DNA of 64,000 nucleotides from Bacteroidales bacterium (GTDB taxonomy: Bacteria > Bacteroidota > Bacteroidia > Bacteroidales > VadinHA17), in the NCBI GenBank assembly GCA_046329885.1, contig JAXLTU010000002.1, positions 144,520 through 208,519 of the forward strand, read 5' to 3'. How positions within the stretch are numbered: position 1 is the first letter of the stretch; every line of letters begins with the position of its first letter. A program made the translations under genes and the position numbers. Shown piece by piece: positions 1,373 through 48,100 of this stretch. The notes beneath the pieces are model-generated. The model saw nothing but the letters and a program-made list of their open reading frames with translations. It did no database searches and was not told the DNA's origin.

Positions 1373-1378
1373 TTGCAC

Positions 1379-2077: not shown

Positions 2078-2220
2078 TGATTTTCCAGGTACTTCCTAAC
2101 GTTTTCCTGAAGCTCCAGCAAAAGCAAAACTAACCTGTCTCGCGGTGGTATTTTTTCAACATGTCTGACTTTTTAAACATAATGGTCAGTTTGTTTGTTA
2201 TATTCGCGGCCATCTGAATC

Positions 2221-2844
2221 ATGAAAAGTATCAAACCTGAAAAAAAGGATCTTGGCAGGGCGGGACTGATAATCGTTACCGCTCAGAAACGGTTTGGCAT
2301 TTATGGACTCGAGAAGACCTCGATGCGAGAGATTGCCCAGGACCTGGGTATATCCAAGGCATCTTTGTACTATTATTTCCCCGACAAGGAGAGTCTCTAC
2401 AAGGCTGTACTCGAAAAAGAACAGGCGGAATTCATCAGGAACATCACAGTCAAGGCAAGCGAAATAGACGATCCGGAACTGCTCTTAAGGGAATATGTTC
2501 TTACACGGCTTGGCTATTTCAGAACGCTTGTTAACCTGAGCAGGATGAGGCTGGAGTCATTTTCTGACATCAAACCACTGCTCAGGAGTTCGATGCAGGA
2601 GTTCAGGGAAAGGGAAAAAACAATAATAAAGACTGTCTTTGAAAAGGGAGTCCATAGCAGGGTCTTTAATGAAATGGATGTTGAAGACACGGCAGGCTTA
2701 TTTCTCGATTTACTCAAGGGATTGAGATCTACTGTTGTAAATGACAAGTCTATAATTGCAATTGATCAGGAAGAATTTGAGAAGCTGGCAAACAAGACCC
2801 TGGCATTCACTAAAATATTCACTGATGGTCTTAAACGTAAATAG
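2221..2844 (+). CDS. TetR/AcrR family transcriptional regulator
   Basis: N-terminal HTH REIAQDLGISKASLYYYFPDKESLY. It sits immediately upstream of the efflux genes. Confidence 0.9.
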   Translation: MKSIKPEKKDLGRAGLIIVTAQKRFGIYGLEKTSMREIAQDLGISKASLYYYFPDKESLYKAVLEKEQAEFIRNITVKASEIDDPELLLREYVLTRLGYFRTLVNLSRMRLESFSDIKPLLRSSMQEFREREKTIIKTVFEKGVHSRVFNEMDVEDTAGLFLDLLKGLRSTVVNDKSIIAIDQEEFEKLANKTLAFTKIFTDGLKRK

Positions 2845-3888: not shown

Positions 3889-5519
3889 TGAATAACAGGA
3901 GAACACCGACGCACCGTATCAGGAAACTGGCCAGGAAGACTACCCCGGGGTTTCATCCCAGGAGTATAAACTACAAATGGTTCCTCCTGGCTAATGTCAT
4001 GCTCGGCACCTTCATGGCTGTTCTCGATGCCACTATAGTCAACGTGGGTCTGCCAAAGATAATGTCCTCTTTCGGGGTTGGGCTTGACAAAATCGAGTGG
4101 GTCATCACGGCCTACATGCTAGCCATGGCTGTAATGCTTCCTACCTCGGGATGGCTGGCAGATAAATACGGGTACAAGAAGATATATTTTTTCGGACTGT
4201 TCCTTTTCACCTTCGGGTCAATGCTTTGCGGGTTGTCTTCAAACGAGGATATGCTCATCATCTCCAGGATAATCCAGGGCCTTGGGGCAGGGACTATACA
4301 GCCACTTGGGATGGCGATAATAACGAGGGAATTTCCACCGAGCCAGAGAGGTGTTGCACTTGGATTCTGGGCTATATCAGCCGCGGCATCCGTTTCGTTT
4401 GGCCCGCTTATCGGTGGTTACCTCATCGACAGGTTCAGCTGGCCGCTGATATTTGACGTGAACATACCATTCGGTATCCTCGCGATGCTGTTTACCATAG
4501 TAATTCAGAGCGAGTACAAAAGCAGGAGAAAGCGCGATTTTGATCTCGTGGGTTTCATTTCCGTCACGATTTTCCTCCCGCTTACTCTTTATGTACTTTC
4601 GGAAGGGAACTCGGCAACGAATACAGCAGGATGGCACGCCCCTTATCTGCTTGCTTTCGGCGCTATTGCCCTGATTGCATTTGTAGTATTCATAACGAAC
4701 GAACTCATTGTCAAGGACCCGCTTCTTGATCTGAGATTGCTCAGGAATCATAACTTCGGGATGGCAAACCTGATAATGATTATTTTCAGTATCGGGATGT
4801 TCGGAAGCACCTTCCTGATGCCTGTCTACCTTCAGAATTCGCTTGGCTACTCGGCGCTTCAGGCTGGTTCCGTCTTTCTCCCTGTCGGAATAATACAGGG
4901 CATCATCGCCCCAATTTCAGGGCGGGTTGCTGACAAGATAAATCCCAAGATACCCATAATACTCGGTGTGCTGATTCTTGGTTTTAGTTTCTACCTGAAC
5001 TCGAAACTATCCTATCTCACCGAGATGCGCGAGATAATGATTTCCCTATACCTGAGGGGACTGGGCATGGGACTCATGTTTACAGCTCTGAGCACTATTT
5101 CACTTATCGAAATTCCACGCGAGAAGATGGCCCAGGCCTCAGCCATTTCAAATTCAATAAGGCAGCTTGGAGGCAGTCTTGGAGTTGCTCTCCTGGCCAC
5201 CCTGCTGACATCAAGAGTGCTAATGCATAGTCAGAATTTTGGAGAGGCGATAGATTCAAACTCCCAGGTCTTTCACAATACGGTTAACAACCTCAGGCTT
5301 CACGCCCAAACTGTTGCCGGCTCTTCTCCCGCCGATGCCGTGAAACAGAGCCAGGCCCTGCTCTACAGTAATCTCGGGAAGCAATCGTATATCGAGGGGA
5401 TAAATGATGATTTCCTGCTCGCCTGCCTGATCACTCTGGCCGGGGGGTTGCCAATACTGTTCCTTCACACTAAAAAACACAAAACCCAAAAACAAGTAAC
5501 AAATGAACCGGAACTTTAA
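3888..5519 (+). CDS. MFS transporter, DHA2 (EmrB/QacA-like, 14-TMS) efflux permease
   Basis: Motifs LGTFMAVLDATIVNVGLPKI and GWLADKYGYKK. It has many hydrophobic segments and a length of 543 aa. Confidence 0.9.
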   Translation: MNNRRTPTHRIRKLARKTTPGFHPRSINYKWFLLANVMLGTFMAVLDATIVNVGLPKIMSSFGVGLDKIEWVITAYMLAMAVMLPTSGWLADKYGYKKIYFFGLFLFTFGSMLCGLSSNEDMLIISRIIQGLGAGTIQPLGMAIITREFPPSQRGVALGFWAISAAASVSFGPLIGGYLIDRFSWPLIFDVNIPFGILAMLFTIVIQSEYKSRRKRDFDLVGFISVTIFLPLTLYVLSEGNSATNTAGWHAPYLLAFGAIALIAFVVFITNELIVKDPLLDLRLLRNHNFGMANLIMIIFSIGMFGSTFLMPVYLQNSLGYSALQAGSVFLPVGIIQGIIAPISGRVADKINPKIPIILGVLILGFSFYLNSKLSYLTEMREIMISLYLRGLGMGLMFTALSTISLIEIPREKMAQASAISNSIRQLGGSLGVALLATLLTSRVLMHSQNFGEAIDSNSQVFHNTVNNLRLHAQTVAGSSPADAVKQSQALLYSNLGKQSYIEGINDDFLLACLITLAGGLPILFLHTKKHKTQKQVTNEPEL

Positions 5520-8705: not shown

Positions 8706-10013
8706 ATGAAGAAGAAGATACTTTTCCTTTTATCAGTTACGATACTGGCATTATTTGCCGGTTGCTCCACTCTTGTTCGTTACAGGGTTTTGTACGGAAC
8801 TTCAAAAAATGACAACCTTGTTGATGTCAACGTATTCCGGTTCAGACTGTCTGATAATACATCTGAAAAACAGTCAAAAACACTTTGGGATTTAAACGCT
8901 GAAGCACAGGCGCAGCTTCTAAAAATATATAATTCCCGGTATCCGGGGAACAAGAGCTTTAATGAAGCCCTCGAGAGAAGATACCTTGAATCTGCTGACA
9001 ATCTGCCTCAGAATGATTTCACGAAGAGGGATCTCAGAATGGTATTTTCCATAAGCAAAAACAGGGGTGAATACAGGGACACGTCAGGTAAAACTGTAAG
9101 AACTACACCGGCCGACAGGATTGAATATCTGAAGGTTTCTATAAAAGCAAGTGATCCCCTGTTCAGGTTTACCGGATGGAACTTTTTCACGACCGAATAT
9201 GCCACAATAGATATCGCCAACATATCATCTTCAAGGTCATTCGATCTAACGGGAGAATTATCAGCATCTAAAACCGTCAAGGATGAGAGCGGAAAGAACA
9301 TAAGTCTAAGCCCAACAGTTTCTTCAGGGATGAAAGTGGACCAAACATTGAAGTACCGTTATCTGAAGCTAAACGGACAGCTTAATGACAGCACTATTTC
9401 AATCGAGGAAGAAGGCACTCGTGAAAATGACCTCACGGGAAATATAGTTGCAGATGTATCAATTGAATTTAACAAATTCCCTGTTATGCTCGCGACTGTA
9501 AAAGGATTAAGGGATAGCACGGGGAAACCGGCAAAGGCTGAAAATGTTGAAGCGGATTTCGATTATGTCTTGATTCCCGCGGTTAGCAGCATCAACGACA
9601 AGATTGAAGCTGAGCTAAGCATCGATTATGTTTACAGAAAAGTATTTGGCGGCAAAAAATCATACCCTGAATGGAACGATTGGGTCAGGTACTATACAGG
9701 ACACGTATCTAAGAAAATAACTATACTAAACGCCGCTGATTTTGTACCCGGGTTTTACGGGCTTGGGGTTAACCAGGGTGTTGACAAGTACTTCCTTTCT
9801 GCAAGTGACTCTAATCTCGAGGGAGTGCCCTTGTTTTTCAGAACTTACAAGGAAGCCCGTGATTTTCTGGATTGGTTCAGATCATCATTTGCCGGTGATT
9901 TAAAAAGGAAACCATTACGGGTGGGAAATTACGATCTTATTATTACAGGCAGGGACACCACGGGAGTATCCCGGTTCTGGGACAATATAAATATACTTTC
10001 CGTTTTCTGGTAG
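8706..10013 (+). CDS. Lipoprotein of unknown function
   Basis: Lipobox LALFAGCS after a typical signal peptide. It is a 435-aa ORF with normal composition and no motif I recognise. Confidence 0.6.
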   Translation: MKKKILFLLSVTILALFAGCSTLVRYRVLYGTSKNDNLVDVNVFRFRLSDNTSEKQSKTLWDLNAEAQAQLLKIYNSRYPGNKSFNEALERRYLESADNLPQNDFTKRDLRMVFSISKNRGEYRDTSGKTVRTTPADRIEYLKVSIKASDPLFRFTGWNFFTTEYATIDIANISSSRSFDLTGELSASKTVKDESGKNISLSPTVSSGMKVDQTLKYRYLKLNGQLNDSTISIEEEGTRENDLTGNIVADVSIEFNKFPVMLATVKGLRDSTGKPAKAENVEADFDYVLIPAVSSINDKIEAELSIDYVYRKVFGGKKSYPEWNDWVRYYTGHVSKKITILNAADFVPGFYGLGVNQGVDKYFLSASDSNLEGVPLFFRTYKEARDFLDWFRSSFAGDLKRKPLRVGNYDLIITGRDTTGVSRFWDNINILSVFW

Positions 10014-10212
10014 ATCAGGCTGCTTGCTAATTCCGGAAGTGTCGCGATTATTCCATTTTATTCCGCTTTTTGCCTCTAATTAACATGCCATTATCCCTGG
10101 CTATTAAGACCTTGCATCTTGTAATTCAAATTAGGGAAAGGGGGTGTAATCAGTTAGAAAAGCCTTAAGCATTACCGGAATATTAGTTTATTAATCATTA
10201 ACAATTAAATCA

Positions 10213-11136
10213 ATGGAAGAAACAACAAAATTACCAGCAATGGGGTGGATTCCTGATTTACCTGACATAAGGGACTTCAGCCCGGATACCGCGGAAATTG
10301 ACCTCAAGTTGGCTGACCTGGGAAGGAAAGAATCTATCAATTCCATGTTAATGAGGCTTAAAACAGAAAAACCCAGAAAGGCACCTATTCCCTTACCCGC
10401 CTCAAAAGATCTCAGACCATGGTTCTCTCCTGTCGAAAACCAGTTAACCCTAGGCTCTTGCACAGCAAATGCCGGTGTTGGTCTCGTGGAGTATTTCGAG
10501 AGACGTGCCTACGGGAAACACATTGATGCTTCGCGGATCTTTCTTTACAAAGTGACCAGGGACCTCTTAAAGTGGACCGGAGACAGGGGAGCATATTTAA
10601 GGACCACGATGAAAGCCCTGACTCTCTTTGGTGTTCCTCCCGAGGAATATTGCCCGTACGTTGTAGCCGATTTTGACATTGAACCATCGGCCTTTCTTTA
10701 TGCCTTCGCGCAAAACTACCAGGCCATAACTTATTACAGGCTTGACCCACCGGGTTCTGTCGACAAAAATGCACTATTGCTCCGGATTAAAACTCACCTG
10801 TCGATGAACCTTCCTTCAATGTTCGGTTTCACCGTTTACACCTCTATCAACCAGGCCAATCAAACCGGCAAAATCCCGTTCCCATTCACTGGAGACAGAG
10901 TTGCGGGTGGACACGCCATAGTTGCAGCTGGTTATGACGACAATGTAAGGATTAAGCATTCAGGTACTGGTGCCCCAGAGTACAAGGGCGCTCTGTTAAT
11001 AAGGAATTCATGGGGAACAGGGTGGGGTGATAACGGTTACGGGTGGTTACCATACGAATACGTACTCAAAGGACTTGCAACTGACTGGTGGTCTCTTTTA
11101 AAAAGCGAATGGATTGACACGGGGAATTTTAACTAG
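10213..11136 (+). CDS. Papain-like cysteine peptidase (MEROPS C1 family); no signal peptide
   Basis: Catalytic motifs NQLTLGSCTANA (Gln/Cys), GGHAIVAAGYDD (His) and IRNSWGTGWGDNGYGWLPYEY (Asn/Trp). The N-terminal GWIPDLPDIRDF is typical of bacterial C1 homologues. Confidence 0.85.
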   Translation: MEETTKLPAMGWIPDLPDIRDFSPDTAEIDLKLADLGRKESINSMLMRLKTEKPRKAPIPLPASKDLRPWFSPVENQLTLGSCTANAGVGLVEYFERRAYGKHIDASRIFLYKVTRDLLKWTGDRGAYLRTTMKALTLFGVPPEEYCPYVVADFDIEPSAFLYAFAQNYQAITYYRLDPPGSVDKNALLLRIKTHLSMNLPSMFGFTVYTSINQANQTGKIPFPFTGDRVAGGHAIVAAGYDDNVRIKHSGTGAPEYKGALLIRNSWGTGWGDNGYGWLPYEYVLKGLATDWWSLLKSEWIDTGNFN

Positions 11137-11176
11137 CCCGTGATCCTTCAACCGCGAGCCATCAGAATAGGCTAAC

Positions 11177-11213
11177 GAGGCCGGCATCAGATACCGGCCT
11201 CATTTTTGTATTT
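11177..11213 (+). terminator. Rho-independent terminator after the C1 peptidase gene
   Basis: GAGGCCGG (11177-84), a 9-nt loop, CCGGCCTC (11194-201), then ATTTTTGTATTT. Confidence 0.6.
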
Positions 11214-11283
11214 GGAAAGAATGCCTGGTCTTGATAAATATCACTACCACGCGTGTAAAATCCTGAAGGATTTTCAGTTTACA

Positions 11284-11952
11284 CTATTTAAGCTTGTGGT
11301 AGATACCTTTCCATATATCTTTCCCTCTTTTATTCTTACCAGCCTCAACGTAACCAGACTTCTGAAGTAATAAAAGTATTTCATTCACTTTATCCTGATC
11401 ATTAATGGTATCTTCTGATATTCCTGGCACTGTACGATAACTATAAGTTGTATTTAATACTGCATTAGCCACTTTTTGAATTGAAATTGCATCAATATTA
11501 GTTGAGGTCTTCGCGATTACATCCTGAACTACTTCATCAATATCGTCAATCTCGACATTCTGCATCTCAACATCTTCCACGGCTTTCTTTGCCTCTTCAA
11601 CCTTTTTATCGATTGTTTCCGTCTTTTTCTCTATATTATTAATCTTGTCGTACAAATCCTCGAGAAACCTCTTTGAAAAATAAGAGGCCAGTACGCATAA
11701 ACCGGCTATAATCAGGTAGTTTTTGACGGGCATCGTATCAGTTATTGTCAAGAGATCATTCGGTAAAACCTGGAGAAATAAAGGCACTGTTATCGATGCA
11801 CACAGACCCATGAGTATGCATTTAATCTTCAGCATCCTGGTTTCACCAATTGGAATCTCGGGGTTCCAGATAAGATAGTAGTTTGTAATTCCTCCCAGCA
11901 AACCAGCCAGGAGAATTATCAGGATGATAAGAACTACGGGCAATGGAGACAT
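11284..11952 (-). CDS. 3-TM membrane protein with acidic coiled coil and a small C-terminal winged-helix-like domain
   Basis: Three N-terminal hydrophobic helices, a central E/K/D-rich heptad region, and the C-terminal segment KVNEILLLLQKSGYVEAGKNKRGKDIW. Confidence 0.55.
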   Translation of the reverse strand: MSPLPVVLIILIILLAGLLGGITNYYLIWNPEIPIGETRMLKIKCILMGLCASITVPLFLQVLPNDLLTITDTMPVKNYLIIAGLCVLASYFSKRFLEDLYDKINNIEKKTETIDKKVEEAKKAVEDVEMQNVEIDDIDEVVQDVIAKTSTNIDAISIQKVANAVLNTTYSYRTVPGISEDTINDQDKVNEILLLLQKSGYVEAGKNKRGKDIWKGIYHKLK

Positions 11953-12030
11953 GGTTTTAGTTTTTGATTTCTGACTGAAGAATAATTATGCAAATATCCG
12001 GGTGCCAAAATAATGTTCAAAGAATATGAC

Positions 12031-12088
12031 AGGAAATGGAGGGAAAAAAAGGGAAATATCGGGCAAAAACGGGAACATGGTTTTTCCC
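12031..12088. repeat. Five tandem 10-bp phased repeats (GGGAAA-N4) plus an inverted TTTTTCCC, in a divergent promoter region
   Basis: AGGAAATGGA GGGAAAAAAA GGGAAATATC GGGCAAAAAC GGGAACATGG at 12031-12080, then TTTTTCCC at 12081-88, which is the reverse complement of GGGAAAAA at 12041-48. Confidence 0.6.
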
Positions 12089-12146
12089 TGATCATTGTTG
12101 AGTAAGGATTTACGAATTGTGCCGGTACACGGTGTTAGTTGCTCTG

Positions 12147-12178
12147 ATTGACAAGCGCGTGGCGAAAGCTTAACTTTG
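12147..12178 (+). promoter_or_regulatory. Candidate Bacteroidota-type promoter for the EEP nuclease gene
   Basis: TAACTTTG at 12171-78 fits the TAnnTTTG -7 consensus and lies 38 nt before the ATG. A weak aTTG lies about 21 nt upstream of it. Confidence 0.3.
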
Positions 12179-12215
12179 TAATATACTGACAAGTAAAATT
12201 TAAAAAACATAAATT

Positions 12216-13271
12216 ATGGCAGGAAAGATCAAGATTGCAACGTTTAACTGTGAAAACCTTTTTAACAGGATAACTATATTCCGGGAAAGTGAGCAGAAAG
12301 CTCACGAACTACTTGAAGCCGTAGACAAACTCAATGCCGAACTAAAGAAACCCGTCTTCGACCAGGCCGAGATAGCCAGGCTCAAAACCATACTCAAAGG
12401 TTTTGCATCGATTAATGACATTAAGAATAAACACACTACAGCGGGTATAGGTGCGAGAGAATGGTTTGGGTGGATTGAGTATAACCAGCAACCTGCAGAA
12501 GATGCTTCAATTCAGAATCTGGCCAGGGTAATAGCTGAAACAGATGCTGACATCATATGTCTGATCGAGGTTGAAAACAGGACTGTTTTGCAGAAATTCC
12601 ATGATGACATACTCTACAAGCATTACTTGAAACCCTTCGGGAAAAGAAAATATGAACATATTATGCTGATAGATGCCAACGACCCCAGGGGAATTGATGT
12701 AAGCCTCATGTCCAGATTACCAATTATTTCAATGAAAAGCTACCTAGATGACACGACTTCTTACCTTGGAAAGATCACCAAGACTTTTTCCCGGGATTGT
12801 CTGCATGTGACGCTTGACATTGGTGCGGATAGACCATTGAATCTTTTCATCAATCATTTAAAATCGCAGGGATACTCCGGAGAAGGAGATCCTGGAGGAA
12901 ATATCCGGAGAGAGGGTCAGGCTAAAAGGGTTGCAGAAATAATTAATACTCTTGATCTCCAAAATGATCTTGTCATCGTTGCCGGTGATTTGAATTGCGA
13001 TCCATCAAATAATTCCCTGGCGCCTCTCCTGAACCGATCCGACTTGTTCAACCTGAATATGAAACTTCCACCGGATGAAAGAGGGACTTACCTTACAGGA
13101 AAGAAACAATTGGATTATCTGATTGTTACAAAACCACTTGAAAAAAGAATGACCCAACTGAAAGTCATAAAGAGAGGCATTTTTAAATACCCTGATCACT
13201 ACCCAACTGTAACGGATAAAGTATCTCAGGCCTCCGATCATGCCGCTGTTGTAGCCGAGTTTGATTTTTAA
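12216..13271 (+). CDS. Endonuclease/exonuclease/phosphatase (EEP) family protein, NucH/ExeM-like nuclease fold; no signal peptide
   Basis: Motifs KIATFNCENLF, DADIICLIEVEN, INHLKS, VAGDLNCDP and SDHAAVVAEFDF. Confidence 0.85.
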   Translation: MAGKIKIATFNCENLFNRITIFRESEQKAHELLEAVDKLNAELKKPVFDQAEIARLKTILKGFASINDIKNKHTTAGIGAREWFGWIEYNQQPAEDASIQNLARVIAETDADIICLIEVENRTVLQKFHDDILYKHYLKPFGKRKYEHIMLIDANDPRGIDVSLMSRLPIISMKSYLDDTTSYLGKITKTFSRDCLHVTLDIGADRPLNLFINHLKSQGYSGEGDPGGNIRREGQAKRVAEIINTLDLQNDLVIVAGDLNCDPSNNSLAPLLNRSDLFNLNMKLPPDERGTYLTGKKQLDYLIVTKPLEKRMTQLKVIKRGIFKYPDHYPTVTDKVSQASDHAAVVAEFDF

Positions 13272-15134: not shown

Positions 15135-15144
15135 GGTATCCTGC

Positions 15145-15208
15145 AAACAGACAGTGAAGCAGCTTTTAACCCTTTATGCTGCTTCACTATCATTTTTACT
15201 GTCTGTTT
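15145..15208 (+). terminator. Long interrupted hairpin after the SRPBCC gene (probable terminator)
   Basis: AAACAGACAGTGAAGCAGC (15145-63), a 14-nt loop, GCTGCTTCACT (15178-88), the bulge ATCATTTTT, then ACTGTCTGTTT (15198-208). Both arm segments are perfect complements. Confidence 0.55.
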
Positions 15209-15255
15209 TCTGCTTTCTCCTTTTTCCTTTTTACTTTTTCCTTTCTCCTTTCTCC
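15193..15255 (+). repeat. Heptanucleotide-phased pyrimidine array (9 units)
   Basis: TTTTTAC TGTCTGT TTTCTGC TTTCTCC TTTTTCC TTTTTAC TTTTTCC TTTCTCC TTTCTCC. Confidence 0.7.
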
Positions 15256-15354
15256 TACCAGATACCTGAAATTCTACCGTTTTGGCCAGAATTGATTACC
15301 TCCGGTGAAGGAAATATATAGGAAATTAAAGCCGGCACTGCATCACCAGGAGAA

Positions 15355-18300: not shown

Positions 18301-20214
18301 TTCAAGGATTTTTACTGAACCGTCTTTGTGATAGTAACCTACCTTCATCGTTGTCGTTCTGGCTTGATCTTCCTTCCCCTCCAGAGCTAACTGGTCCACT
18401 AGAAGTGCTGCCGCCTTAACGAGATACTCTGGAGCTATTGTCTGTTCAGGGCTTTTCCCGAGTATCTCTTCAGCAGTGAATCCGAGTATCTTTTGAACGG
18501 AGGGGGTTACCCATGTTGTCTGCAAATTAAGGTCACAGGTCCAGAGTATGTCATACATCCTTTCCGTCAGCCCCCTGTAGTTATTTTCACTTTCCCGGAG
18601 TTTCTTCTCTGCCAGTTTGAGCCTTGTAATATCAGTACCTACAATCAGGTAAAAGACTTTGCCCACGGGCATAACCAGGTCAATTGACACGAGCAGTACT
18701 ACCTGTTCACCATTTTTCTTGACTGTCGAGAACTCGCGGTTTCTGAAAGATCCTTCCCTGGCTATATTCTCCCTGACTTCTTCCTTCAGATCAGGTTCGA
18801 TCTTGAAAATCTCATCAATTGTTTTTCCGATAACTTCCTGATCCGTGAAACCAAGTGTTTCACGGAACGAGTTATTGACCTCAACCAGTTGCTCGGTATC
18901 AACTGTACAGAGGCCCATAAGATCCGGGCTCACGTTAAATATCCTGTGAAATTTCTCCTCCGAGAGTTTAAGGAGTGAAATATCCTTGCTAACCCCGAAG
19001 AAAACATTTTTACCATCCCACTCCCCTTTAATAACATAGGTTTCCACGGGAATTAGCTCGCCGGTTTTTGTAATCAATGGAATATGGCAAGAGGATTCTG
19101 TACCTGAAACCACTTCTATCACTCTCTTCTCAGCTTCTTGCCTTAAAGCTTCCGGATGGACAATTGAAATGTGTTGCCCAAGTAATTCTGAAGCTTTGTA
19201 TCCCAACCTGTTGATAACAGTTTCATTAATTTCAATTATCCTGCCTTTTGTATCAAGCACCCAGTGAAAGTCGATATCCGAATGAAAGAAATTCTTGAGG
19301 TTTGTCTCGCTTTTTCTCCTTTTTGTTTCCGTATCGTTTCTTTTAATTGCAACTCCTACCAGATTGGCGAAAACAGCAACGGATGCATTGTTTCTCATCT
19401 CCTTCCCTTTGCCGAAAAACAGGATGAAGTCGCCCATTATCTGGGAGTCTGCACTCATTTCAACAACGTATACTGAGCCTGTATTTGTAACAGCGGAGAT
19501 AGCGGTACTAAGTTTTTCAGGGATCGATCCCTCGGCCAGATCTGTTATACAGCCAAACCTCACCACGTGATGATGTCTGATCTGGTTAAGCCTGGCCTCG
19601 GAAACATCCCACTCCCTGTTTAAAAGAGAGTACCCTATGAGCCGGTAAACAGCCTTTACAATTCCAGGTTTGCCATAAACGGCAACATTCCTGAATTTTT
19701 TACTATCCTCCGAGTAAAGGTTAAAAACTCCAAAATCCGCACCGGCAAGCTTGCAAATCTCGCAAGTCAGGTTCCTGTAATCAAGAGGGTATCCTCCTTC
19801 ATCAAGAAGCATCCTGCTTAAGGATATCACCTCGTCACTTTCGCTACCAGTTCTCGACTGAATCTCTTCCAGAAGTATTGAAAAACAGTTTTTATTATCA
19901 GGAATGGTCCTCAGCAAGTAGCTTCTACCCGTGATGGCAGAGTACCTCTCCACGGAAACGACCTTATTTGATAATAAAGCTTTCTCGTATAGCTCGATAT
20001 TATCAAGGCCCGACTGACCGTCGGAAGAAATCAGCTCAAGCAGATCCTTCCCTTCAAGCTTATCTGTAGGTATACCGGTAATATCCGTGAAAGACCTGTT
20101 TACCTCTATTATCGAAAATACTCTTTCTGAAGATTTTACACCTTCTTTCATTGCAATCCTGGCATAGCCCGTGTTGGATTGCATTAATACGGATTTATAC
20201 TGACCTTCATCCAT
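15355..20214 (-). CDS. Multi-PAS/GAF hybrid sensor histidine kinase with C-terminal receiver domain
   Basis: 1619 aa with multiple PAS-like modules and GAF-like segments. HisKA is [23 protein letters not shown]. The HATPase has the [10 protein letters not shown]-type G-box. The receiver is ILVVEDD...[13 protein letters not shown]...KP. Confidence 0.9.
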   Translation of the reverse strand: [1619 protein letters not shown]

Positions 20215-24014: not shown

Positions 24015-24371
24015 ATGGAAGCAGTTATCATTTATGATGGCGAATGCAATCTTTGCAACACTACCGTGAAGTTCGTCAAGAGGCACGACAAGCGATCAGT
24101 GTTCAGTTGTGTTTCAGCACAATCTGACGAGGGAAAAGCTTTACTATCAAAAAACAGGTTAAGCATGGTTGCTGCCGACACGGTTATCCTTTTTCATCAA
24201 AATACCATTTATACTTTATCAGAGGCGGTTCTTGTGATTTTCAGATTAATGGGAGGCAAATGGAAAATATTATATTTCCTGAAAATCATTCCTGCATCTT
24301 TCAGGGATTATGTTTACAAGGTTGTCGCCCGGAACAGGCATCGTTTAACAAAAAGCTCCATGAAATGTTAA
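24015..24371 (+). CDS. DCC-family thiol-disulfide oxidoreductase (DUF393)
   Basis: N-terminal IIYDGECNLCN motif and a size of about 118 aa. Confidence 0.75.
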   Translation: MEAVIIYDGECNLCNTTVKFVKRHDKRSVFSCVSAQSDEGKALLSKNRLSMVAADTVILFHQNTIYTLSEAVLVIFRLMGGKWKILYFLKIIPASFRDYVYKVVARNRHRLTKSSMKC

Positions 24372-24565
24372 ATCTATTGGCTTGTTCTCGTCTTAAGCAT
24401 GGACGATATGGCCAAGCCCCGTTCCTGGCAGGAACATCTCGGGAAAAAGACTTTTAAGGAAGAATACAATAACTTGCTCCTGAAGGCGGGCTGAGCGATT
24501 GATGAGCGGTATGTCCCTTGATTGGAGTCACGCTCCTCCGGAGCTTGAAACTTGTTTGTGCTGTT

Positions 24566-24613
24566 ACCCCCGGTTGCACCGGGGGTTATTCAGATGTGGC
24601 TCTTTCAGAGCCA
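24566..24613 (+). other. Two adjacent perfect stem-loops at the left edge of the repeat mosaic
   Basis: The first is ACCCCCGGT-tgc-ACCGGGGGT (24566-24586, 9 bp). The second is TGGCTCT-ttc-AGAGCCA (24597-24613, 7 bp). Confidence 0.5.
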
Positions 24614-24633
24614 TTTGTCATCCCAGATTCACG

Positions 24634-25260
24634 GCAGTACCCTACCCGGCACCCAGCACCGCGAAACGAGCACCCCTTTAATAAAGCTGCAGAGGCTGTA
24701 TAACTAGGTCCTTCTTCCCCCGTGCTCCGTGCTCCCTGCCTACGCTGAAGCTCCGGCAGGCAAGTGTGCCCTGTGCTTCCCGGTCCACGGTCCTGGGTTC
24801 TGGGTCCTCGGTCTGTTCGGAGCCTGGTCCCAGGCACTGCACTACCGAGAACCGAGAACCAAGCACCGAGAACCTTTATAGAAAGCTGTAGAGGCCTTAA
24901 ATGCTGTAGATGCTATATTAGGAAGTTCCTTCTTCGACCAAGGACCGAGCAACAAGGAACGAGGACCTTTAGATTAAGCAGTAGAGGCTATAGATGCAAT
25001 AAAGAGCTTGATTAATAGCACTTTCTTCCCCCGTGCCCTTGAAGAAAGCTGTAGAGGCTCTAAATGCTTTAGGGGCTGTATTAGAAAGTTCCTTCTTCGA
25101 CCTAGGACCGAGAACCTTCTTCCGCTGTGCTCTGAGCCCCGTGCCCTGAGCTTCTTCCCCTGTGCCCTGTGCCCTGTGCTTCTTCCTTCTTCCCCCGTGC
25201 CCTGTGCTCCGTGCCCTGTGCTTCTTCCCCTGAGCCCTGTGCTTCTTGAATAAAGCTGTC
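24634..25260 (+). repeat. Non-coding mosaic of phase-locked heptanucleotide arrays separated by conserved AAAGCTGYAGAGGC boxes
   Basis: 25118-25250 parses as 19 consecutive in-phase heptamers of the CYGWGCY and TCTTCCY types. Shorter runs are ACCGAGA x4 at 24844-74 and GGTCCNN x5 at 24782-816. Boxes start at 24683, 24882 and 25045, with degenerate copies at 24975 and 25252. A 73-nt unit is duplicated at 24881-24953 and 25044-25116. Confidence 0.8.
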
Positions 25261-25261
25261 C

Positions 25262-27652
25262 TTAATTCTGTTTCCTTCCTTTAAGGTACTCCTCGAACAG
25301 GTTGTATATCCTCTTGTACTCGTCTGTCCAGCTCGACGCTTCAACGAATCCGTGACTCTCGAGGGGGTAAACAGCAAGTTCCCAGTTATCCTTACCAAGT
25401 TCTATGAGTCTTTGAGTGAGCCTGACAATATCCTGGAAATGAACATTATCATCTACCATCCCATGACACATGAGAAGGTGACCCTGGAATCCCCCGGCAT
25501 GATAAATCGGAGAACTCCTGACATATGCAAGACTGTCAGTTGACGGGGTGTTCAGGATATTCGCGGTATATCCATGATTATAGTGTGCCCAGTCGGTTAC
25601 CGATCTTAAGCCTGCCCCGGCCGTGAATACACCCGGCTTGGTGAACATTGCCATAAGCGTTATGAATCCCCCGTACGACCCTCCATAAATCCCGATCTTA
25701 CCAGGGTCGACCTGGCATTTTTCAACGAGATATTTAGCTCCATCAACATTATCGTCGAGATCCTTTCCACCCATGAAACGATATATTCCGGTTCTCCAGT
25801 CTCGACCATAGCCAGCGCTACCCCTGTAGTCAATATCGAGCACGGTGTAGCCATTATCAACAAGGAAGTTATGGAACATGTATTCCCTGAAGTAACTGCT
25901 CCACCACCTGTGGGCGTTCTGGAGGTATCCTGCTCCATGAACAAAGATCACGGCTGGGCCATTACTGACCGGCCTGGCTGGTTTATACAGCCTTGCCGGG
26001 ACCATTGCCCCGTCGGTTGCAGGAATCTTAACAAATTCCGGTACCCTCCAGTTATAAGCCCTGAATTCCTTGGTTGTCGATTCAGTAATCTTTACAGGAA
26101 CTGCCTTGTCCTTGTTTTCCAGGAGGTATAGCTCCCATGGAGTATTTGATCTGGAAACAAGCAGGGCAAAATATTTCTCATCCGGCGACAGTTCAGCAGT
26201 TACACCTGCATCAAAGCTAGTTAGTCTTGTCTTTACACCATCCTTAACATTTAACCTGTATAATTCATTTATGCCATTGTCTACCTCGTTGGAGATGAAG
26301 TACCAGCATTTACCATCTCTTGATAAGGTCAGGTCAGACACCTCGTAATTACCAGAGGTCCAGGCCTTCTTCGCGCTGGTTGTAACATCCACGGTGTAAA
26401 GATGAGAGAAGCCTGTTTCCTCCGACTGGAAGAACAAGGTTTTTTTATCAGGAAGCCACCCCAGGGAACCCCTGTACCCTATTCCCGGGCCTCCAATCCA
26501 GGCATCATCATGCTGTCTGTCAATCAGACTGAGCTTACCTGTTTGAATATCAAGCAGCATTATCCAACGATCCTTATTGTCGTTAGCATAGATCTCGACA
26601 GCGGCCTGAGAACCGTCATCAGTCCACACCGGTTCATTTATCCTGATGCTTCTTCTGGATGGTTTTTCCTGTCTCATTCCGGCAGCCTGCTTTTTGGCCG
26701 GATAATCCTTCAGGTAAGCAGGTGTATCATTTATCCCGGGGATATCATCCGTTTTAACCCTGTAGACAGTATCTCTCCTGATATCGTAAATCATAAGATC
26801 TGATGATCCTGAACTACCTGAACCTACCTTCGAACGCGCTCTTTGGTCCTCAGTGTAACCCGATTCTGTCACATAAGCAGGAACAATTGTTCCCTTGTCG
26901 TCGCCAGGTTGCATTGTTGTCCAGGTAAGATAGTTGTTATCAGGACTTAACTTTAAGGACCTTGGCATGCCGGCACCGGTATAGACAGGCTTGGGTCTAT
27001 CCGGCTGGAGCAACTTGCTTTCCTTCTCGTAAAAATCCCTGGTTGCCTTTCGTTCAGATAATGTTTTTATAAGATACATTTCGCTGTTATGAAGCCATTT
27101 GTCACGTGGATTTGCATAGGGAGACTCTTCTGGTTTCTCCTTGCCCTGCCTCATATCGGTCATTTGTGATACAAGCCCTGAAACGGGATCCCAGGTATAA
27201 AGGTTCCCGTTAGCGGAATATATTACTTTGTCTTCGTTTTTGCTGAACACCGGGTTACTCTCGGGTGAAAGTGTATTAGTAATTTGCCTGCTGCTGCCCG
27301 TTTTAATATCGAGGATGAACAGGTCCCCGTCTTTCGAGTACAACATCTTCGTTCTGTCGCGGTTTAAAGTTCCGTAAAAGGAAGGAAGGTTCTTGCGTTC
27401 CTCCGGGGTCACCTTTTGTGGCTTCGTGTTACCTGGTGATATGAAATACAGAGATGGTTGATCCTCCATTTCGGGGTTCCAGTTAAAAAACAGTTTGTTA
27501 CCCGAGGGATTCCATTGCAGGTTCGATGGAGAATATCCGGTAAATTTCTCACCCTGCATTATTTTCTCAATTTTCAGGGTGCTCTGTGAACGTGCATCAA
27601 TTATTACAACCGACAGGATCACAGCAATTAGCAGTCTAGGGGTCTTCATCAT
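25262..27652 (-). CDS. S9 family serine peptidase (dipeptidyl-peptidase / acylaminoacyl-peptidase-like) with N-terminal beta-propeller
   Basis: Signal peptide, nucleophile motif GIYGGSYGGF, MCHGMVDDNVHFQD (Asp) and LESHGF (His). Confidence 0.9.
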   Translation of the reverse strand: MMKTPRLLIAVILSVVIIDARSQSTLKIEKIMQGEKFTGYSPSNLQWNPSGNKLFFNWNPEMEDQPSLYFISPGNTKPQKVTPEERKNLPSFYGTLNRDRTKMLYSKDGDLFILDIKTGSSRQITNTLSPESNPVFSKNEDKVIYSANGNLYTWDPVSGLVSQMTDMRQGKEKPEESPYANPRDKWLHNSEMYLIKTLSERKATRDFYEKESKLLQPDRPKPVYTGAGMPRSLKLSPDNNYLTWTTMQPGDDKGTIVPAYVTESGYTEDQRARSKVGSGSSGSSDLMIYDIRRDTVYRVKTDDIPGINDTPAYLKDYPAKKQAAGMRQEKPSRRSIRINEPVWTDDGSQAAVEIYANDNKDRWIMLLDIQTGKLSLIDRQHDDAWIGGPGIGYRGSLGWLPDKKTLFFQSEETGFSHLYTVDVTTSAKKAWTSGNYEVSDLTLSRDGKCWYFISNEVDNGINELYRLNVKDGVKTRLTSFDAGVTAELSPDEKYFALLVSRSNTPWELYLLENKDKAVPVKITESTTKEFRAYNWRVPEFVKIPATDGAMVPARLYKPARPVSNGPAVIFVHGAGYLQNAHRWWSSYFREYMFHNFLVDNGYTVLDIDYRGSAGYGRDWRTGIYRFMGGKDLDDNVDGAKYLVEKCQVDPGKIGIYGGSYGGFITLMAMFTKPGVFTAGAGLRSVTDWAHYNHGYTANILNTPSTDSLAYVRSSPIYHAGGFQGHLLMCHGMVDDNVHFQDIVRLTQRLIELGKDNWELAVYPLESHGFVEASSWTDEYKRIYNLFEEYLKGRKQN

Positions 27653-43953: not shown

Positions 43954-44030
43954 CACTGCCTGTTACCTGTTATATCTTATTATTTGCAAACAGGTTAGAA
44001 AGCGCTTTAAAACCAATACCGCATTCTTCC

Positions 44031-44079
<49 letters not shown>

Positions 44080-44141: not shown

Positions 44142-45098
44142 ATGAAACAGTTAACAGAGAAAAGAAAAGTAGTTGTCGTGGGAGCCGGATCGGTTGGTGC
44201 AACATATTGTTATGCTCTTGCACAGAGCGGTCTGGCAGACGAGATTGTAATAATAGATCGTAACATTGAACTTGCCGGTGGTCAGGTCTCGGATCTCGAA
44301 CATGGACAGCCATTTTTCCCAACCGTCAATATAAGACAGGGAGACATGGCAGATTATTCTGATGCCAACCTCATCGTTGTAACAGCCGGGGCCAACCAGA
44401 AACCTGGCGAGACCAGGCTTGATCTACTCAGGAAGAATGCAGCTATTGTCGGATCAATAGCGGAGGATGTTGCATCAAGCGGATCGAAAGGTGTAATGCT
44501 GATTGTCAGCAATCCGGTTGATGTTCTGACCCTGGTTGCCCTCAGGCGGTCGGGATGGGAAAGAGGCAGGGTAATAGGGTCAGGAACAGTACTCGACAGT
44601 GCCCGGTTCAGGCATTTCATTTCAAAGCATTGTGATGTTGATGTTCACAATGTCCATGCCTATATACTTGGCGAACATGGTGACAGTGAATTCGCCGCGT
44701 GGTCCATGACTCACATCGGGGGAATAGGCATTGATCAGTATTGTCCCGTATGCGGTGGTTGTGAAAACGGCAAAAACGAGCGACAGAAAATTGAGAAGCA
44801 GGTAAGGGAATCTGCCTATCATATTATCAATGCCAAGGGATCAACTCACTTTGCTGTCGGATTAGCTCTCGTGCGCATCACGGCTTCCGTACTGAGAAAC
44901 CAGAACTCTGTGCTTACGGTATCGGCCTGTCTTGAAGGGGAATATGGCATAAAAAACGTCTGCCTGAGTGTTCCCTGCGTAATATCCGGATCAGGAATTG
45001 TAAGAATCGTTGACAGTCCCCTCGAGCCTGGCGAAAGTCAATTACTACAACGCTCTGCCGAGATACTTCGTGAGGCAAGCAGGTCAATAGAAAGCTGA
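44142..45098 (+). CDS. ldh: L-lactate dehydrogenase
   Basis: VVVVGAGSVGATYCYAL (NAD binding), TAGANQKPGETRLDLL (a Gln at the substrate-specificity position, as in LDH rather than MDH), and GEHGDSEF. Confidence 0.9.
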   Translation: MKQLTEKRKVVVVGAGSVGATYCYALAQSGLADEIVIIDRNIELAGGQVSDLEHGQPFFPTVNIRQGDMADYSDANLIVVTAGANQKPGETRLDLLRKNAAIVGSIAEDVASSGSKGVMLIVSNPVDVLTLVALRRSGWERGRVIGSGTVLDSARFRHFISKHCDVDVHNVHAYILGEHGDSEFAAWSMTHIGGIGIDQYCPVCGGCENGKNERQKIEKQVRESAYHIINAKGSTHFAVGLALVRITASVLRNQNSVLTVSACLEGEYGIKNVCLSVPCVISGSGIVRIVDSPLEPGESQLLQRSAEILREASRSIES

Positions 45099-45111: not shown

Positions 45112-48100
45112 CTATTGTTTGTCGTTCTCGTTTTCTTTCTTGCGTTTATCTGTCTCACACGGGCTCACAGGTCTGTCTGATCCATTTCCTGAAACAGGCT
45201 CCCTGTCCGATGAGATACAAATAGACCATTGCCCCATTGATCCCGGATTCCTGTTGCTCAGAACAACTCTGAGATTCCCGCTGAAAAGGTAATACTGCCC
45301 TGTATTTAACCGGTAGGGTTTCCCATTAACAACCGCATCTCCTCCACCTGCAATTGGTTTGAGATAGAGACTTGATGCCTGGCCGGAGTATGTGAAATTC
45401 CGGTTTGTCAAAGAATCGCGGACTATTGTAACGGATGGCGTCACTAAACAGAATTCCCAATCCGAATTACCGGGATTAAACCTGACCCCGCATGGTTTTT
45501 CCTCTACTTTTACCTCCGACACTCCACTGTCTTCACCACATTCATTCCTGGCGGTTAATCTGAATAGATGACTGCCGGGCAACAGGGTGACGGATGATTT
45601 TATCTCACCTGTAGCGGAGGAAAATGTGAAGGATTCAACTGGCTTGTTATCGAGTGAAAGCGAAATCCCTTCCCTATCCTTTACATTCAATACTGATCCC
45701 CTCAATTCGTGTGAAGCATCCTCACTGTTAACAGCAGTTACTTTTAATTCAACAACCGGGGGTAAACAGGGTTTTTCAACAACGACAGTCTCGGATCCCA
45801 TATCTGAACCACAATCATTTCTGACAGTCACATTAATCCCATGGGTACCAGGTTCAAGCTTAAGCAGAGCCTTGAGCTCACCCCCTCCCTCTTCATATGA
45901 GAAATTGTTGATTATCTCATTATCTACCGTGATCTTTATTCCCTCCCTCGTGCTGATATTTGTTACCCTTGCAATTATCTCGTGAGTGTAGCTGTCTACG
46001 GATACCTTTTTAATCGTTAAGGATATTGTTGGTGCTGAACATGGCTTTTCAACCACTGCTGTTTCAACTTTACTATCTGATCCACATTCATTATTAACAA
46101 ATACTTTGATTGTCCAGGTTCCCGGACCGAAGTTGAATGATTCACTTAGCTTACCGGTTGCAGGATCGTATCTGAATGTTTCAACCTTATTGTCATTAAC
46201 TGACATTGTAATACCATCCCTTGACTTTACATTCTCTATACTACCAGAAAACACATGTGTTGTTCCTGCCTGGTTTGATTTTTCAATACTAAACGAGAGG
46301 TTTGGTTTTTCACAGGGTTTCTCTACAACTACAACACTGCTTTTCACTACTGATCCACACTCGTTGGTAACAGTTACCCTGATAGTAAAGGTTCCCGGAC
46401 CGAAACTGAATGATTCGCTTAGTTTTCCTGATTCAGGATCGTATTTAAACGTTTCAATCCCGCGGTCATTAACAGTAACTGATATTCCATTCCTGGATTT
46501 CACATTTTCAACATTTCCTGTCAGTACATGTGTTGCATCTCCCGAGTTTGACTTTTCAATGCTAAAAGAGAGGCTGGGTTTTTCACATGGTTTGATTATT
46601 ACTTCATCAGCGGGCCGGTAAATAATCGTACCGGCCGCCTTTGCCTTACCGCACTCGTTAGAAGCAGAGATATTGAAGGTATTTGCACCTGGTGTCAGCA
46701 TAGCCTCGAAGCTTAATTCCTTGTTTACAATCGTAAAATCCTTAATGTCTTTGCCATTAAGATTGATACTAAGCTTTTCCCTTGAATCGACAGACCTCAG
46801 GCTGGCCTTAATTATTATATTCTGTTTATCGGTAACCATGGCTTCCTGGTCAGGATAGGTAATCTTTATTTCAGGGAGAGGACATGGTTTCGTTTCCTTG
46901 ATTATTACCTGGTTCCTTATGTCCTGACCGGAATTGTTCCTTGCTGTCAACACAATTGTATTGCTGCCTTCCACGAGAGCCGGAGTCAAAACTACAGTCA
47001 TTTCTCCCTGGTCAAACCTGAAGGCGCTGAATATTGTCCCGTTTAATGTTACACTAATGTTATCACGACTAATTACTCCTGAGACCCTGGCTTTAATTTC
47101 CACTCCGGTTTCATAGGTTCTGTATGGCGAAGCAACAGGGCTTATTATCGTGATTGCGGGGGGGATTGGTTTCACAGGGAGCTCTCGTGTAATGAGTGCA
47201 ACAGCCGAGGCTTTACCTGATTCATTTTTCACTGATAATTCTACCTTGTTAATCCCCAGGTTTAACCCGATGTTACTTGTCACAATTCCCTGGTCAGTCA
47301 GGTTGAAATTGGTTATATCTTCGCCATTCACTCTCAACGAGACATCCTGCCAGAACTTCACGTTTGTAGTGCTTGCACTTATCCGGAAACTGTTCCCGGA
47401 TACAGTTACTGCCGAGGCGGGTTCTGTAAACCTGACTGAAGGACCTGGCACGATTGTCTGCCTGTTAACTATAACCACAACCTCATCCGAAGCACTTCCG
47501 GTGTTATTAATGGCCGTAATCCTAATCACGTTTCTTGGGTCAGATAATACCACATTTGACTTTACACTACCATATACCTGGTTATAATCGAATCCAGTAT
47601 TCCTGCCGTTAACCTGAAGTTTTATGTCCTGCTTCGAGTTAACATTCCTCACCCTGGCGGTGATCTCAATCGAAGCAAGCGTGGTTGTATATGTATCGGC
47701 TGATGGAATAACTATGTCGACGACAGGTGAAGATTCAACGGGAATCGCTGGCGGGTAGTTTTTAGGGACATCCTCTGTCCTCATATTATTTACCGGTGGG
47801 TTATCCGTTACCGGTGGATAATAAATCCTTCTGCTTCCACCACCACCTCCTCCTCCAAGCACCCATCTGAAGCCAAGCGTGAGGTAATTGTTCCTGTCTT
47901 TTTTTGAATCATGATTGATCCTGTTGTCCAGGTTTAATCCCGCGAAACTGTTATTCTCGTTGAGGTAAAAATTAGTTTTGAATTCCACTCCAAGCGAAAA
48001 CGAACGTGTGAACTGGTACCCGGCATAAAAACCAGCGGTTGGCAGCAGGGCGGCATGGTTGGTCAGCTTAGTTTCAAAACTGCCGTCCGCAAGTGCAAGC

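Follow-up and report, generated by a model that had tools for sequence, protein, structure and literature searches.

For over 30 years, tandem arrays of seven-nucleotide units have stood as an unexplained curiosity of cyanobacteria, xanthomonads and a handful of other bacteria. The short tandemly repeated repetitive (STRR) sequences of heterocystous cyanobacteria, reportedly described by Mazel and co-workers in 1990, are said to be tandem heptanucleotides, of several unit types per genome, dispersed and intergenic. Their canonical units are CCCCAGT (STRR1), TTGGTCA (STRR2) and CAACAGT (STRR3), the first being complementary to the GGGGACT heptamer that Rehm and colleagues examined. Here we describe a repeat block (positions 24634–25260) between two convergent genes, for a DCC1-like thiol-disulfide oxidoreductase and an S9 family peptidase, in a 64,000-nucleotide (nt) stretch of DNA from an uncultured Bacteroidales bacterium (assembly GCA_046329885.1, contig JAXLTU010000002.1, positions 144,520 to 208,519 of the forward strand). 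This whole stretch is called the window, and all positions refer to it unless another locus is named. The record is a metagenome-assembled genome (MAG). The locus is real, and it represents, in unusually elaborate form, a type of bacterial repeat already known, though unexplained.

In the study of Rehm et al. (2015, PMC4692102), G-rich heptamers, GGGAATC in Xanthomonas and GGGGA(C/T)T in Nostoc, abut stop codons. They are dispersed, strongly biased towards non-coding DNA and depleted between divergent genes; stem-loops can arise from inverted copies, the repeats are not linked to mobile elements, and a regulatory role was sought in Xanthomonas and none was found. MacGregor (2015, PMC4679880) reported TAACTGA heptamer arrays in Beggiatoaceae, cyanobacteria and five Bacteroidetes, among them Flexibacter, Paludibacter (Bacteroidales), Gramella and Aequorivita. 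Where TAACTGA arrays are long, the spacer also contains other heptamer direct repeats, and in related species the arrays are missing from the corresponding loci. An earlier note on the present locus, made from the letters alone, knew of no equivalent described in Bacteroidota, a view that this report puts out of date. As far as it is summarised in PMC4679880, the survey of Mrazek (2007) found heptamers to be the commonest of the long simple sequence repeats (LSSRs), which have units of 5–11 nt; polymerase slippage was proposed as their origin, their phylogeny is scattered, with array-rich and array-poor genomes, and the ten richest genomes given there include no Bacteroidetes.

The block fills most of the 890-bp spacer (24372–25261) between the stop codons of the two genes, at 24371 and 25262. 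A formal autocorrelation of 24634–25260 gives a lag-7 value of 0.416 (z = 9.1), with harmonics at 14, 21, 28 and 35 and up to lag 49, and Tandem Repeats Finder reports period-7 arrays at 24720, 24789, 24844 and 25125–25242. The main array (25118–25250, minus strand) consists of 19 in-register heptamers, by Tandem Repeats Finder and by exact parsing. On the plus strand its units are CYGWGCY, with a TCTTCCY unit every three to five units; on the sense strand of the S9 peptidase gene they read GGGCACA, GGGCACG and GGGAAGA. The array also has a 28/35-nt higher-order periodicity: Tandem Repeats Finder scores a 35-nt period (3.6 copies) at 168, versus 62 for period 7. It immediately adjoins the 3' end of the peptidase gene, beginning about 12 nt past the stop codon, and, unlike the rest of the spacer, has matches at other loci fetched for comparison. 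Three related kinds of heptamer make up the block: CYGWGCY/TCTTCCY, GGTCCTG and the complement of the latter, ACCGAGA. The parses of 25118–25250 and of the runs at 24713, 24782, 24844 and 24936 that had been made by hand in the earlier note each match the sequence exactly, and its impression that the block is richer in G+C than its flanks is borne out. G+C content is 54.4% in the block and 62.4% in the main array. The window stands at 43.9% and the average over its 34 intergenic regions at 36.6%; among the latter the spacer is the most GC-rich and also the longest, the runner-up measuring 496 bp.

The shorter heptamer runs lie to the left of the main array. At the mosaic's distal end, residues 24634–24682 form a degenerate run with a local lag-7 value of 0.57 at 24642; on the minus strand, to which it is assigned, it reads GGTGCTC, GTTTCGC, GGTGCTG, GGTGCCG and GGTAGGG. 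A further plus-strand segment (24709–24781, found by Tandem Repeats Finder and as direct-repeat families D1 and D5) contains TCTTCCC/CCGTGCT heptamers (24713–24740), a hairpin CCTGCC...GGCAGG (24735–24760) and, at 24765–24779, two units of CYGTGCY type. This is followed by a palindromic pair of arrays, described below, and by a GACCAAG/GACCGAG array of the ACCGAGA family (24936–24967, plus strand; exact parse, lag-7 z = 4.4). With respect to the LSSR definition, the block is composed of head-to-tail units of 5–11 nt, up to 19 of them, beyond chance expectation, and there are several non-coding arrays, at three separate intergenic sites within 64 kb.

Between the heptamer arrays are AT-richer boxes that the earlier note had read as punctuation sharing a 15-mer. 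The copies at 24683, 24882 and 25045 and a degenerate one at 24975 are confirmed, but the boxes are themselves tandem arrays of a 9-mer (GCTNTAGAN, two to four times) and not a punctuating signal. The box AAAGCTGYAGAGGC is exact at the first three positions and has two mismatches at 24900 and 24975; five matches with up to two mismatches were found in the spacer, against 0.65 expected, and none elsewhere in the 64-kb window. The three full boxes have a lag-9/lag-18 periodicity with z = 3.2–4.2, while their lag-7 z is about 0, and can be read as GCTGTAGAG GCCTTAAAT GCTGTAGAT GCTATATTA plus close variants. The first box (24683–24703, plus strand, exact match, family D3) holds two 9-mers, GCTGCAGAG and GCTGTATAA. 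The second belongs to a 77-nt module (24873–24949, plus strand, family D4) made up of a junction CCTTTATAGAAA, four 9-mers (24885–24920), TTAGGAAGTTCCTTCTTC and the start of the GACCAAG array; this copy has a lag-9 z of 4.1 and is 86% identical to a second copy at 25036–25112 (plus strand, family D4, 9-mers at 25048–25083, lag-9 z = 4.2). Within this duplication, the 73-nt unit previously aligned by hand (24881–24953 versus 25044–25116) indeed has 63 of 73 positions identical. Between the two modules is a degenerate 9-mer array (24975–25035, plus strand, family D6, lag-9 z = 3.2), which contains the box with two mismatches and reads GCAGTAGAG GCTATAGAT GCAATAAAG, then TTTCTTCC CCCGTGCC. The copy noted at 25252 is present in truncated form, with only the first 8 nt of the box (AAAGCTGTCC, 25252–25261, plus strand, family D8), and lies against the stop codon of the S9 peptidase gene. 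The direct-repeat families D1 to D8 of the spacer include, besides the 77-nt block, a 61-nt block present twice at 77% identity. In these families the box, the junction (CYTTnAnnAAA), TTCTTC and heptamers co-occur as one travelling set. The region is therefore a higher-order repeat and not a series of arrays with a signal between them; about five diverged modules are arranged in tandem, each made up of a 9-mer array plus heptamer arrays.

The palindromic pair (24782–24874, unstranded, identified by Tandem Repeats Finder and folding) is composed of (GGTCCTG)5 in the left arm (24782–24816) and (ACCGAGA)4.4 in the right arm (24844–24874), which together form an imperfect hairpin of about 93 nt. 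Its minimum free energy as RNA is −49.6 kcal/mol on the plus strand (z = −4.0) and −55.9 kcal/mol on the minus strand (z = −5.7), in agreement with the hairpin, centred near 24830, that the earlier note had proposed. A search for inverted repeats in 24372–25300 returned no pairs; because the arms are imperfect, the inverted arrays escape such a search and become visible on folding. After the hairpin come GGGAAGC on the S9 strand and CCUUUAUAG on the plus strand. Among the fetched loci there are 16 pairs of adjacent arrays with reverse-complementary units. Three pairs at one locus, L128, have near-perfect stems of up to 36 bp, with folding energies of −51, −78 and −25 kcal/mol (z = −9.6, −12 and −7.6), and one of these palindromic arrays spans the whole gap between two convergent genes, 2 and 3 nt from the respective stop codons. 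The focal hairpin is a diverged member of this repeat-built type.

The strand bias of the main array is pronounced. Residues 25153–25230 contain 36 C and 14 G on the plus strand, the window's highest excess of C over G among 78-nt segments and rut-like (resembling a Rho utilization site) by composition only, and the array also has the window's most negative G4Hunter value (−1.56). The three heptamer arrays of the window, two of which are introduced below, are all among its six most extreme segments of this kind on the plus strand (36 C/14 G, 24 C/3 G and 22 C/1 G). On the G-rich strand, relaxed G-quadruplex motifs (loops of up to 12 nt) are present at 25137–25174 and 25192–25237. A canonical G-quadruplex, with loops of up to 7 nt, was looked for in the focal region and set aside, only the relaxed motifs being found. 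The related locus L098 has eight perfect GGGCACA units. A consensus scan of 24372–25261 on both strands revealed no intrinsic terminator.

Scanning the window at lags 5 to 11 revealed arrays at lag 7 only, and both of the other arrays are intergenic. One (15207–15256, plus strand) contains seven CTTTCTC/CTTTTTC units between convergent genes; the other (44030–44075, plus strand) contains 6.6 CTTTTTA units, and the two are 92% similar over 37 nt. The first prolongs the T-rich tail of a terminator-looking hairpin: the region 15135–15354 consists of the hairpin (GTGAAGCAGC...GCTGCTTCAC) and then the T-rich heptamer array, and its neighbours are a Polyketide_cyc2-like gene and a gene for a 1619-residue PAS/GAF histidine kinase-response regulator hybrid. 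The second array lies upstream of a lactate/malate dehydrogenase gene (44142–45098), 66 nt from its start; changes in the length of this array could shift the promoter or leader spacing.

For comparison, a background set of 83 Bacteroidota S9-peptidase neighbourhoods, unselected for repeats and totalling 869 kb, was examined; gene calls at this and the other comparative loci are longest open reading frame (ORF) calls, not curated annotation. Arrays of periods 7, 8 and 9 number 17, 15 and 7, respectively, while the other periods from 2 to 20 occur at most three times each. Only 17 of the 83 loci carry arrays and the counts are overdispersed, with up to eight in 14 kb, so that the trait is lineage-specific. 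No fewer than 36 of the 44 background arrays are in non-coding DNA, which makes up 11% of the sequence (p = 2e-27). Arrays within 100 nt of the S9 stop codon occur at about 7 of about 80 loci, near the general array rate, and there is thus no specific association with S9 genes. In one relative (L001), an 8-mer array, AGACTNAG, directly follows the stop codon of its own S9 gene and is in turn followed by a 9-mer array, TCCGTGTAA; the 8-mer recurs 7 kb away. Arrays of the 8-mer GAGACTNA are found in L001 at 12398–12518 and 19758–19811 and also in a Lentimicrobium MAG (L060, about 5274–5362), and the TCCGTGTAA family is represented in L001, L003 (as a 10-mer) and L162. Such recurrence of specific units across genomes is not what random slippage predicts.

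The CYGTGCY unit of the main array was sought as three consecutive units in one genome per species, giving at least 120 stretches. These loci were ascertained by the repeat itself, which affects unit frequencies and leaves orientation statistics unaffected. Among the 120 stretches listed, about two dozen are from Bacteroidota, from some 18 MAGs. Among these matches there are at least three loci each in POMEDNA-B08 and AS22ysBPME_306 and at least two each in MFD02416.bin.1.315 and MFD02950; Lentimicrobium, Prolixibacteraceae, Mariniphaga, Rikenellaceae and other Bacteroidota are also represented, and outside the phylum the matches include Lysobacterales/Xanthomonas, one cyanobacterium and various high-GC taxa. 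The variants at these loci are those of the focal array (CTGTGCC, CCGTGCC, CTGAGCC and CTGCGCC), and the arrays often pass into TTCTTC-type units at their gene-distal end. The earlier note raised the possibility of a dispersed family. The heptamers do occur at several loci per genome in Bacteroidales MAGs; the boxes have no match in the rest of the window or at 204 other loci. The compound architecture is not special to this locus: a different array lies within 300 nt in 13 of 31 low-GC CYGTGCY loci, so compound tracts are common, and inverted pairs occur elsewhere too. The CYGTGCY repeat itself was not found in the literature searched. CYGTGCY arrays, some of them long, are also present in 35 IMG/VR contigs (L205–L239) with at least three consecutive units, and in IMGVR_UViG_3300034069_000341 long arrays are located at both ends of the fetched pieces.

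The arrays of the CYGTGCY family are oriented with respect to genes. When the C-rich strand is on top, the right-hand gene very often lies on the other strand and has its stop codon 0–20 nt from the array. Stop codons located 5' of the G-rich strand are at a median distance of 11 nt, with 12 of 17 within 20 nt; those located 3' of it are at a median of 148 nt, with none of 16 within 20 nt (Mann-Whitney p = 4e-6). Start codons show no comparable asymmetry, and the arrays are never closer than 20 nt to a start. The focal array obeys the rule, facing the S9 peptidase stop codon with its G-rich strand as the sense strand. Of the 16 background arrays within 30 nt of a stop codon, 13 have more G than C on the sense strand (12 of 15 when only unique loci are counted, p = 0.035). 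Since array orientation does not follow local GC skew (18 versus 13, p = 0.81), the replication strand was rejected as its cause. Nine of 22 CYGTGCY arrays are between convergent genes and one of 22 between divergent genes, compared with 20% and 21%, respectively, in the background.

The array class, its intergenic bias and its stop-codon polarity were already described for Xanthomonas and Nostoc (PMC4692102). The CYGTGCY family reproduces the polarity and the spacer-type bias and extends that description to a third phylum and a new unit. What is new here is the GGGCACA/CYGTGCY unit and its occurrence in Bacteroidales, a lineage in which such arrays have barely been noted. The focal array differs in its unit, GGGCACA, and in its host phylum; its GGGAAGA interruptions leave no four-tract G-quadruplex with loops of up to 7 nt, only with loops of up to 12 nt, and it is part of a much larger mosaic with 9-mer arrays. 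While the heptamers of Rehm et al. prefer four units, the present arrays have no such preference. The TAACTGA arrays are likewise intergenic heptamer arrays in Bacteroidetes, but they are mostly located just upstream of start codons in forward orientation, whereas the CYGTGCY family is found against stop codons. The focal tract belongs to the LSSRs by unit length class, although its compound, palindromic architecture is outside their definition. The analogy with STRR sequences drawn in the earlier note is apt, the arrays being tandem, dispersed, intergenic heptanucleotides; the units here are different (CYGWGCY, TCTTCCY, GGTCCTG/ACCGAGA, CTTTTTA and CTTTCTC), the host is a Bacteroidales MAG, and in the Bacteroidota examined periods 8 and 9 come close to period 7 in frequency. 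Bacterial interspersed mosaic elements (BIMEs), built from repetitive extragenic palindromic (REP) units, are also extragenic mosaics at gene 3' ends with repeated palindromic units and boxes, and the related MAG POMEDNA-B08 does have dispersed non-array boxes beside its arrays. However, a REP unit is a palindrome of about 35 nt, while the focal units are tandem 7- to 9-mers whose boxes are not dispersed in the window or at the 204 other loci, and no gene resembling a REP-associated tyrosine transposase (RAYT) was seen among the annotated neighbours. An array of clustered regularly interspaced short palindromic repeats (CRISPR), with 23–47-nt repeats and unique spacers, was discarded as a candidate, the focal units being 7 and 9 nt long and contiguous.

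The arrangement of the sequence suggests that the block is probably a compound simple-sequence tract, LSSR- or STRR-like, built by slippage, tolerated by its host and without a dedicated product. Such a tract would arise and be resized by replication slippage in 7-nt (or 9-nt) units, a process to which the strict 7-nt phase of the 19 units points. Unequal exchange of multi-unit blocks may have generated the 35-nt period and the 77-nt duplicate, as is suggested by the 28/35-nt period together with the 61- and 77-nt duplicates, and template switching could have given rise to the inverted arms. Transcription would most likely include the tract in the S9 peptidase mRNA, as a 3' untranslated tail. 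Two observations are not easily explained by purely neutral slippage. The units CCTGTGC, GAGACTAA, TCCGTGTAA and AATTACG recur in different genomes. At the syntenic loci L030 and L098, whose flanking genes have 74–77% DNA identity and whose spacers are unalignable, (CCCTGTG)n abuts the carboxyltransferase stop codon in both, between it and the start of the biotin carboxylase gene on the same strand (an acyl-CoA carboxylase operon); both features, the unit and its place, were therefore retained or re-formed across considerable divergence and within an operon. Also counting against the favoured reading are the dispersed non-array boxes of POMEDNA-B08, which suggest a possible mobile or gene-conversion component in the focal genome, and the absence of a strict G-quadruplex motif from the focal array. 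A selected function in cis is, from the sequence, possible but doubtful. Its most explicit form, which we consider rather unlikely, would be a 3'-end element or insulator between the convergent genes, in which the G-rich array and the long hairpin on the S9 strand stabilise or end the transcript, while the opposite, C-rich strand acts as a rut-like Rho-loading site that stops read-through from the DCC1-like gene antisense into the S9 gene. The strict polarity towards stop codons, the preservation of unit and position in L030 and L098, the enrichment between convergent genes with near absence between divergent ones, the extreme C over G values of all three window arrays and the lack of a terminator-like site anywhere in the 890-bp spacer are all consistent with it, as is the L128 array that fills a convergent gap. 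But the L030/L098 array is placed inside an operon, where a strong terminator would do harm, which argues against single-orientation arrays being strong terminators; the focal hairpin has no U-tract on the S9 strand; 630 nt far exceeds what any terminator needs; and no regulatory role was found in Xanthomonas (PMC4692102). T-rich arrays and 8-mers (GAGACTAA) hold similar positions and, because such different compositions do so, no single sequence-specific mechanism fits all arrays. More speculatively, and improbably in our estimate, stop-abutting (GGGCACA)n arrays and gap-filling palindromic arrays could together form a sequence-constrained system of 3'-end punctuation in environmental Bacteroidota. 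It could act via nucleic-acid structure (sense-side G-rich RNA or R-loops, antisense-side Rho loading and repeat-built hairpins) or via a dedicated binding protein, with a length tunable by slippage, and the two convergent genes of the focal locus would be separated by an insulator of unusual complexity, the 630-nt mosaic.

That the modules are instead mobile or gene-converted copies of a dispersed mosaic, like a BIME or one of the miniature inverted-repeat transposable elements (MITEs), is quite improbable. Two POMEDNA-B08 loci do share their array order (9-mers, then CCTGNGC heptamers) and non-array boxes with 76–88% identity over 70–161 nt, including a CCCCTCC...GGAGGGG hairpin; the extragenic location at gene 3' ends is BIME-like, and the focal spacer contains the 77-nt module twice. 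Against this, the boxes and the segment 24372–24633 match nothing in the remaining 63 kb of the window and, at nucleotide or translated level (blastn, tblastx), nothing at the 204 other fetched loci. No terminal inverted repeats were detected at the block ends, no direct duplication of a target site flanks the block, no transposase, RAYT-like or other mobile-element gene is among the annotated neighbours, and blastn against plasmid and phage collections gave no match; a MITE, with no inverted-repeat pairs in 24372–25300, and mobile DNA were rejected on these grounds. A repeat collapsed, expanded or chimeric in a short-read assembly is a very improbable explanation. The record is a MAG, exact-protein look-ups with the S9 peptidase, P0001 (a Bacteroidales MAG protein identical to it), the DCC1-like protein and a DUF2721 protein returned no independent assembly of the locus, and in other assemblies (for example at L014, L015, L029, L043, L068, L070, L097 and L101) the same arrays are often located at contig ends, which shows that they break assemblies, and the focal copy number may be inexact. 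Yet the tract is interior to a contig of 222.7 kb (222,727 bp), its units are imperfect and mostly distinguishable, so that short reads can assemble it, both flanks are intact genes with conserved end positions, and the same kind of tract is found in many independent assemblies, including ones with long contigs. The existence of the tract is thus not in doubt, although its copy number could be wrong. It is barely credible that the interval codes for a structured RNA or is a protein-coding gene that has decayed or escaped recognition. On the minus strand the fold of the whole region is somewhat more stable than that of shuffled sequence (z = −3.1), but the inverted arrays account for this excess; the region's long stop-free frames result from G-strand units nearly devoid of T, and no reading frame could be maintained under a 7-nt periodicity. 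The seven ORFs of the interval gave no Pfam match even at E ≤ 1, a tblastx comparison of the non-repetitive left part with all loci was empty, as was blastn against related loci, and the C-terminus of the S9 peptidase coincides with those of its homologues. Rfam gave no match at gathering thresholds across the whole window, and a permissive search gave chance-level matches only (best E = 0.32, 19.7 bits compared with a gathering cut-off of 47.7 bits). A coding interval and a known RNA were discarded accordingly: the block is non-coding, and the statements in the earlier note that it holds no gene, known RNA or terminator hold.

The tolerated, slippage-built tract that we favour still calls for an explanation of the polarity. 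The polarity known from Xanthomonas and Nostoc recurs in a third phylum, and a rule shared in this way points to a single cause, mutational or at the level of the transcript. On the mutational side, a structure formed by the G-rich strand might block replication and provoke one-sided deletions; in Caenorhabditis elegans lacking DOG-1, deletions start at a G-rich motif and extend 50–300 bp to one side (PMC4654259). Erosion of dispensable DNA 5' of the G strand would then leave the array against the stop codon. On the functional side, a G-rich 3' tail might protect or end the mRNA, or its C-rich, G-poor complement might serve as a Rho-loading site against antisense read-through. The orientation of the arrays with respect to the stop codon is a concrete handle on this choice. 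More broadly, arrays of 7-, 8- and 9-nt units are common in uncultured environmental Bacteroidota, they are often paired as repeat-built hairpins, and one unit family, CYGTGCY, recurs across genera and inside operons. In practice, the arrays break short-read assemblies and yield spurious low-complexity ORFs in annotation.

The two flanking genes are readily assigned. The DCC1-like thiol-disulfide oxidoreductase gene (24015–24371, plus strand) encodes 118 residues and matches Pfam PF04134 with E = 6e-29; the S9 prolyl oligopeptidase/DPP-IV family peptidase gene (25262–27652, minus strand) is an ORF of 796 codons with a profile match. The peptidase and P0001 are 100% identical, and identity falls to about 74% in the next relatives. 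The relatives compared do not retain synteny around the S9 gene. In the relative L002, a DCC1-like gene (9435–9797) is located upstream of the S9 peptidase gene (10001–12385) and divergent from it; the pair are still neighbours there despite rearrangement, the DCC1-like gene of the window being downstream and convergent. In L030, the carboxyltransferase gene (735–2314, minus strand) is split into overlapping ORFs, 735–1178 and 1154–2314, by a frameshift or a sequencing error.

The non-repetitive part of the focal spacer contains two small hairpins (24566–24619, plus strand, read from the sequence), ACCCCCGG-TTGCA-CCGGGGGT and TGGCTCT-TTC-AGAGCCA, the second followed by TTTGTC. Both are also present in a 723-nt fold, and neither was flagged in the consensus terminator scan; they are possible weak terminators of the DCC1-like gene. 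The first, CCCCCGG-TTGCA-CCGGGGG (24566–24586), resembles GC-rich hairpin boxes at other loci. Such boxes (CCCCTCCGAGGAGGGG, CCCCTTCAAAGGGG and CCCCCTAAAGGGGG) and a further box, GTTATAACAWTGTTATAACATGGTTCCG, adjoin arrays in L012, L059, L062, L032, L063 and L098. The first three of these loci are from POMEDNA-B08, and array-adjoining boxes common to the loci of one genome have a REP-like look. In AS22ysBPME_306, a 127-nt non-array segment is shared with 92% identity between L087 (481–606) and L107 (6215–6338); in L107 it is away from the array and may be another dispersed element.

Two further repeats were observed in the window. A purine-rich repeat with a 20-nt period (GGAAATGGAGGGAAAAAAAG, 2.4 copies) is located in a divergent intergenic region at 12032–12080, and a strict G-quadruplex motif (12041–12073, plus strand) is contained in it. 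At 46072–46593, a 273-nt tandem repeat (1.9 copies, 75% identity) is part of an ORF of 1173 codons (45112–48633, minus strand) with weak Big_7 and PKD matches, and probably represents duplicated immunoglobulin-like domains of a surface protein.

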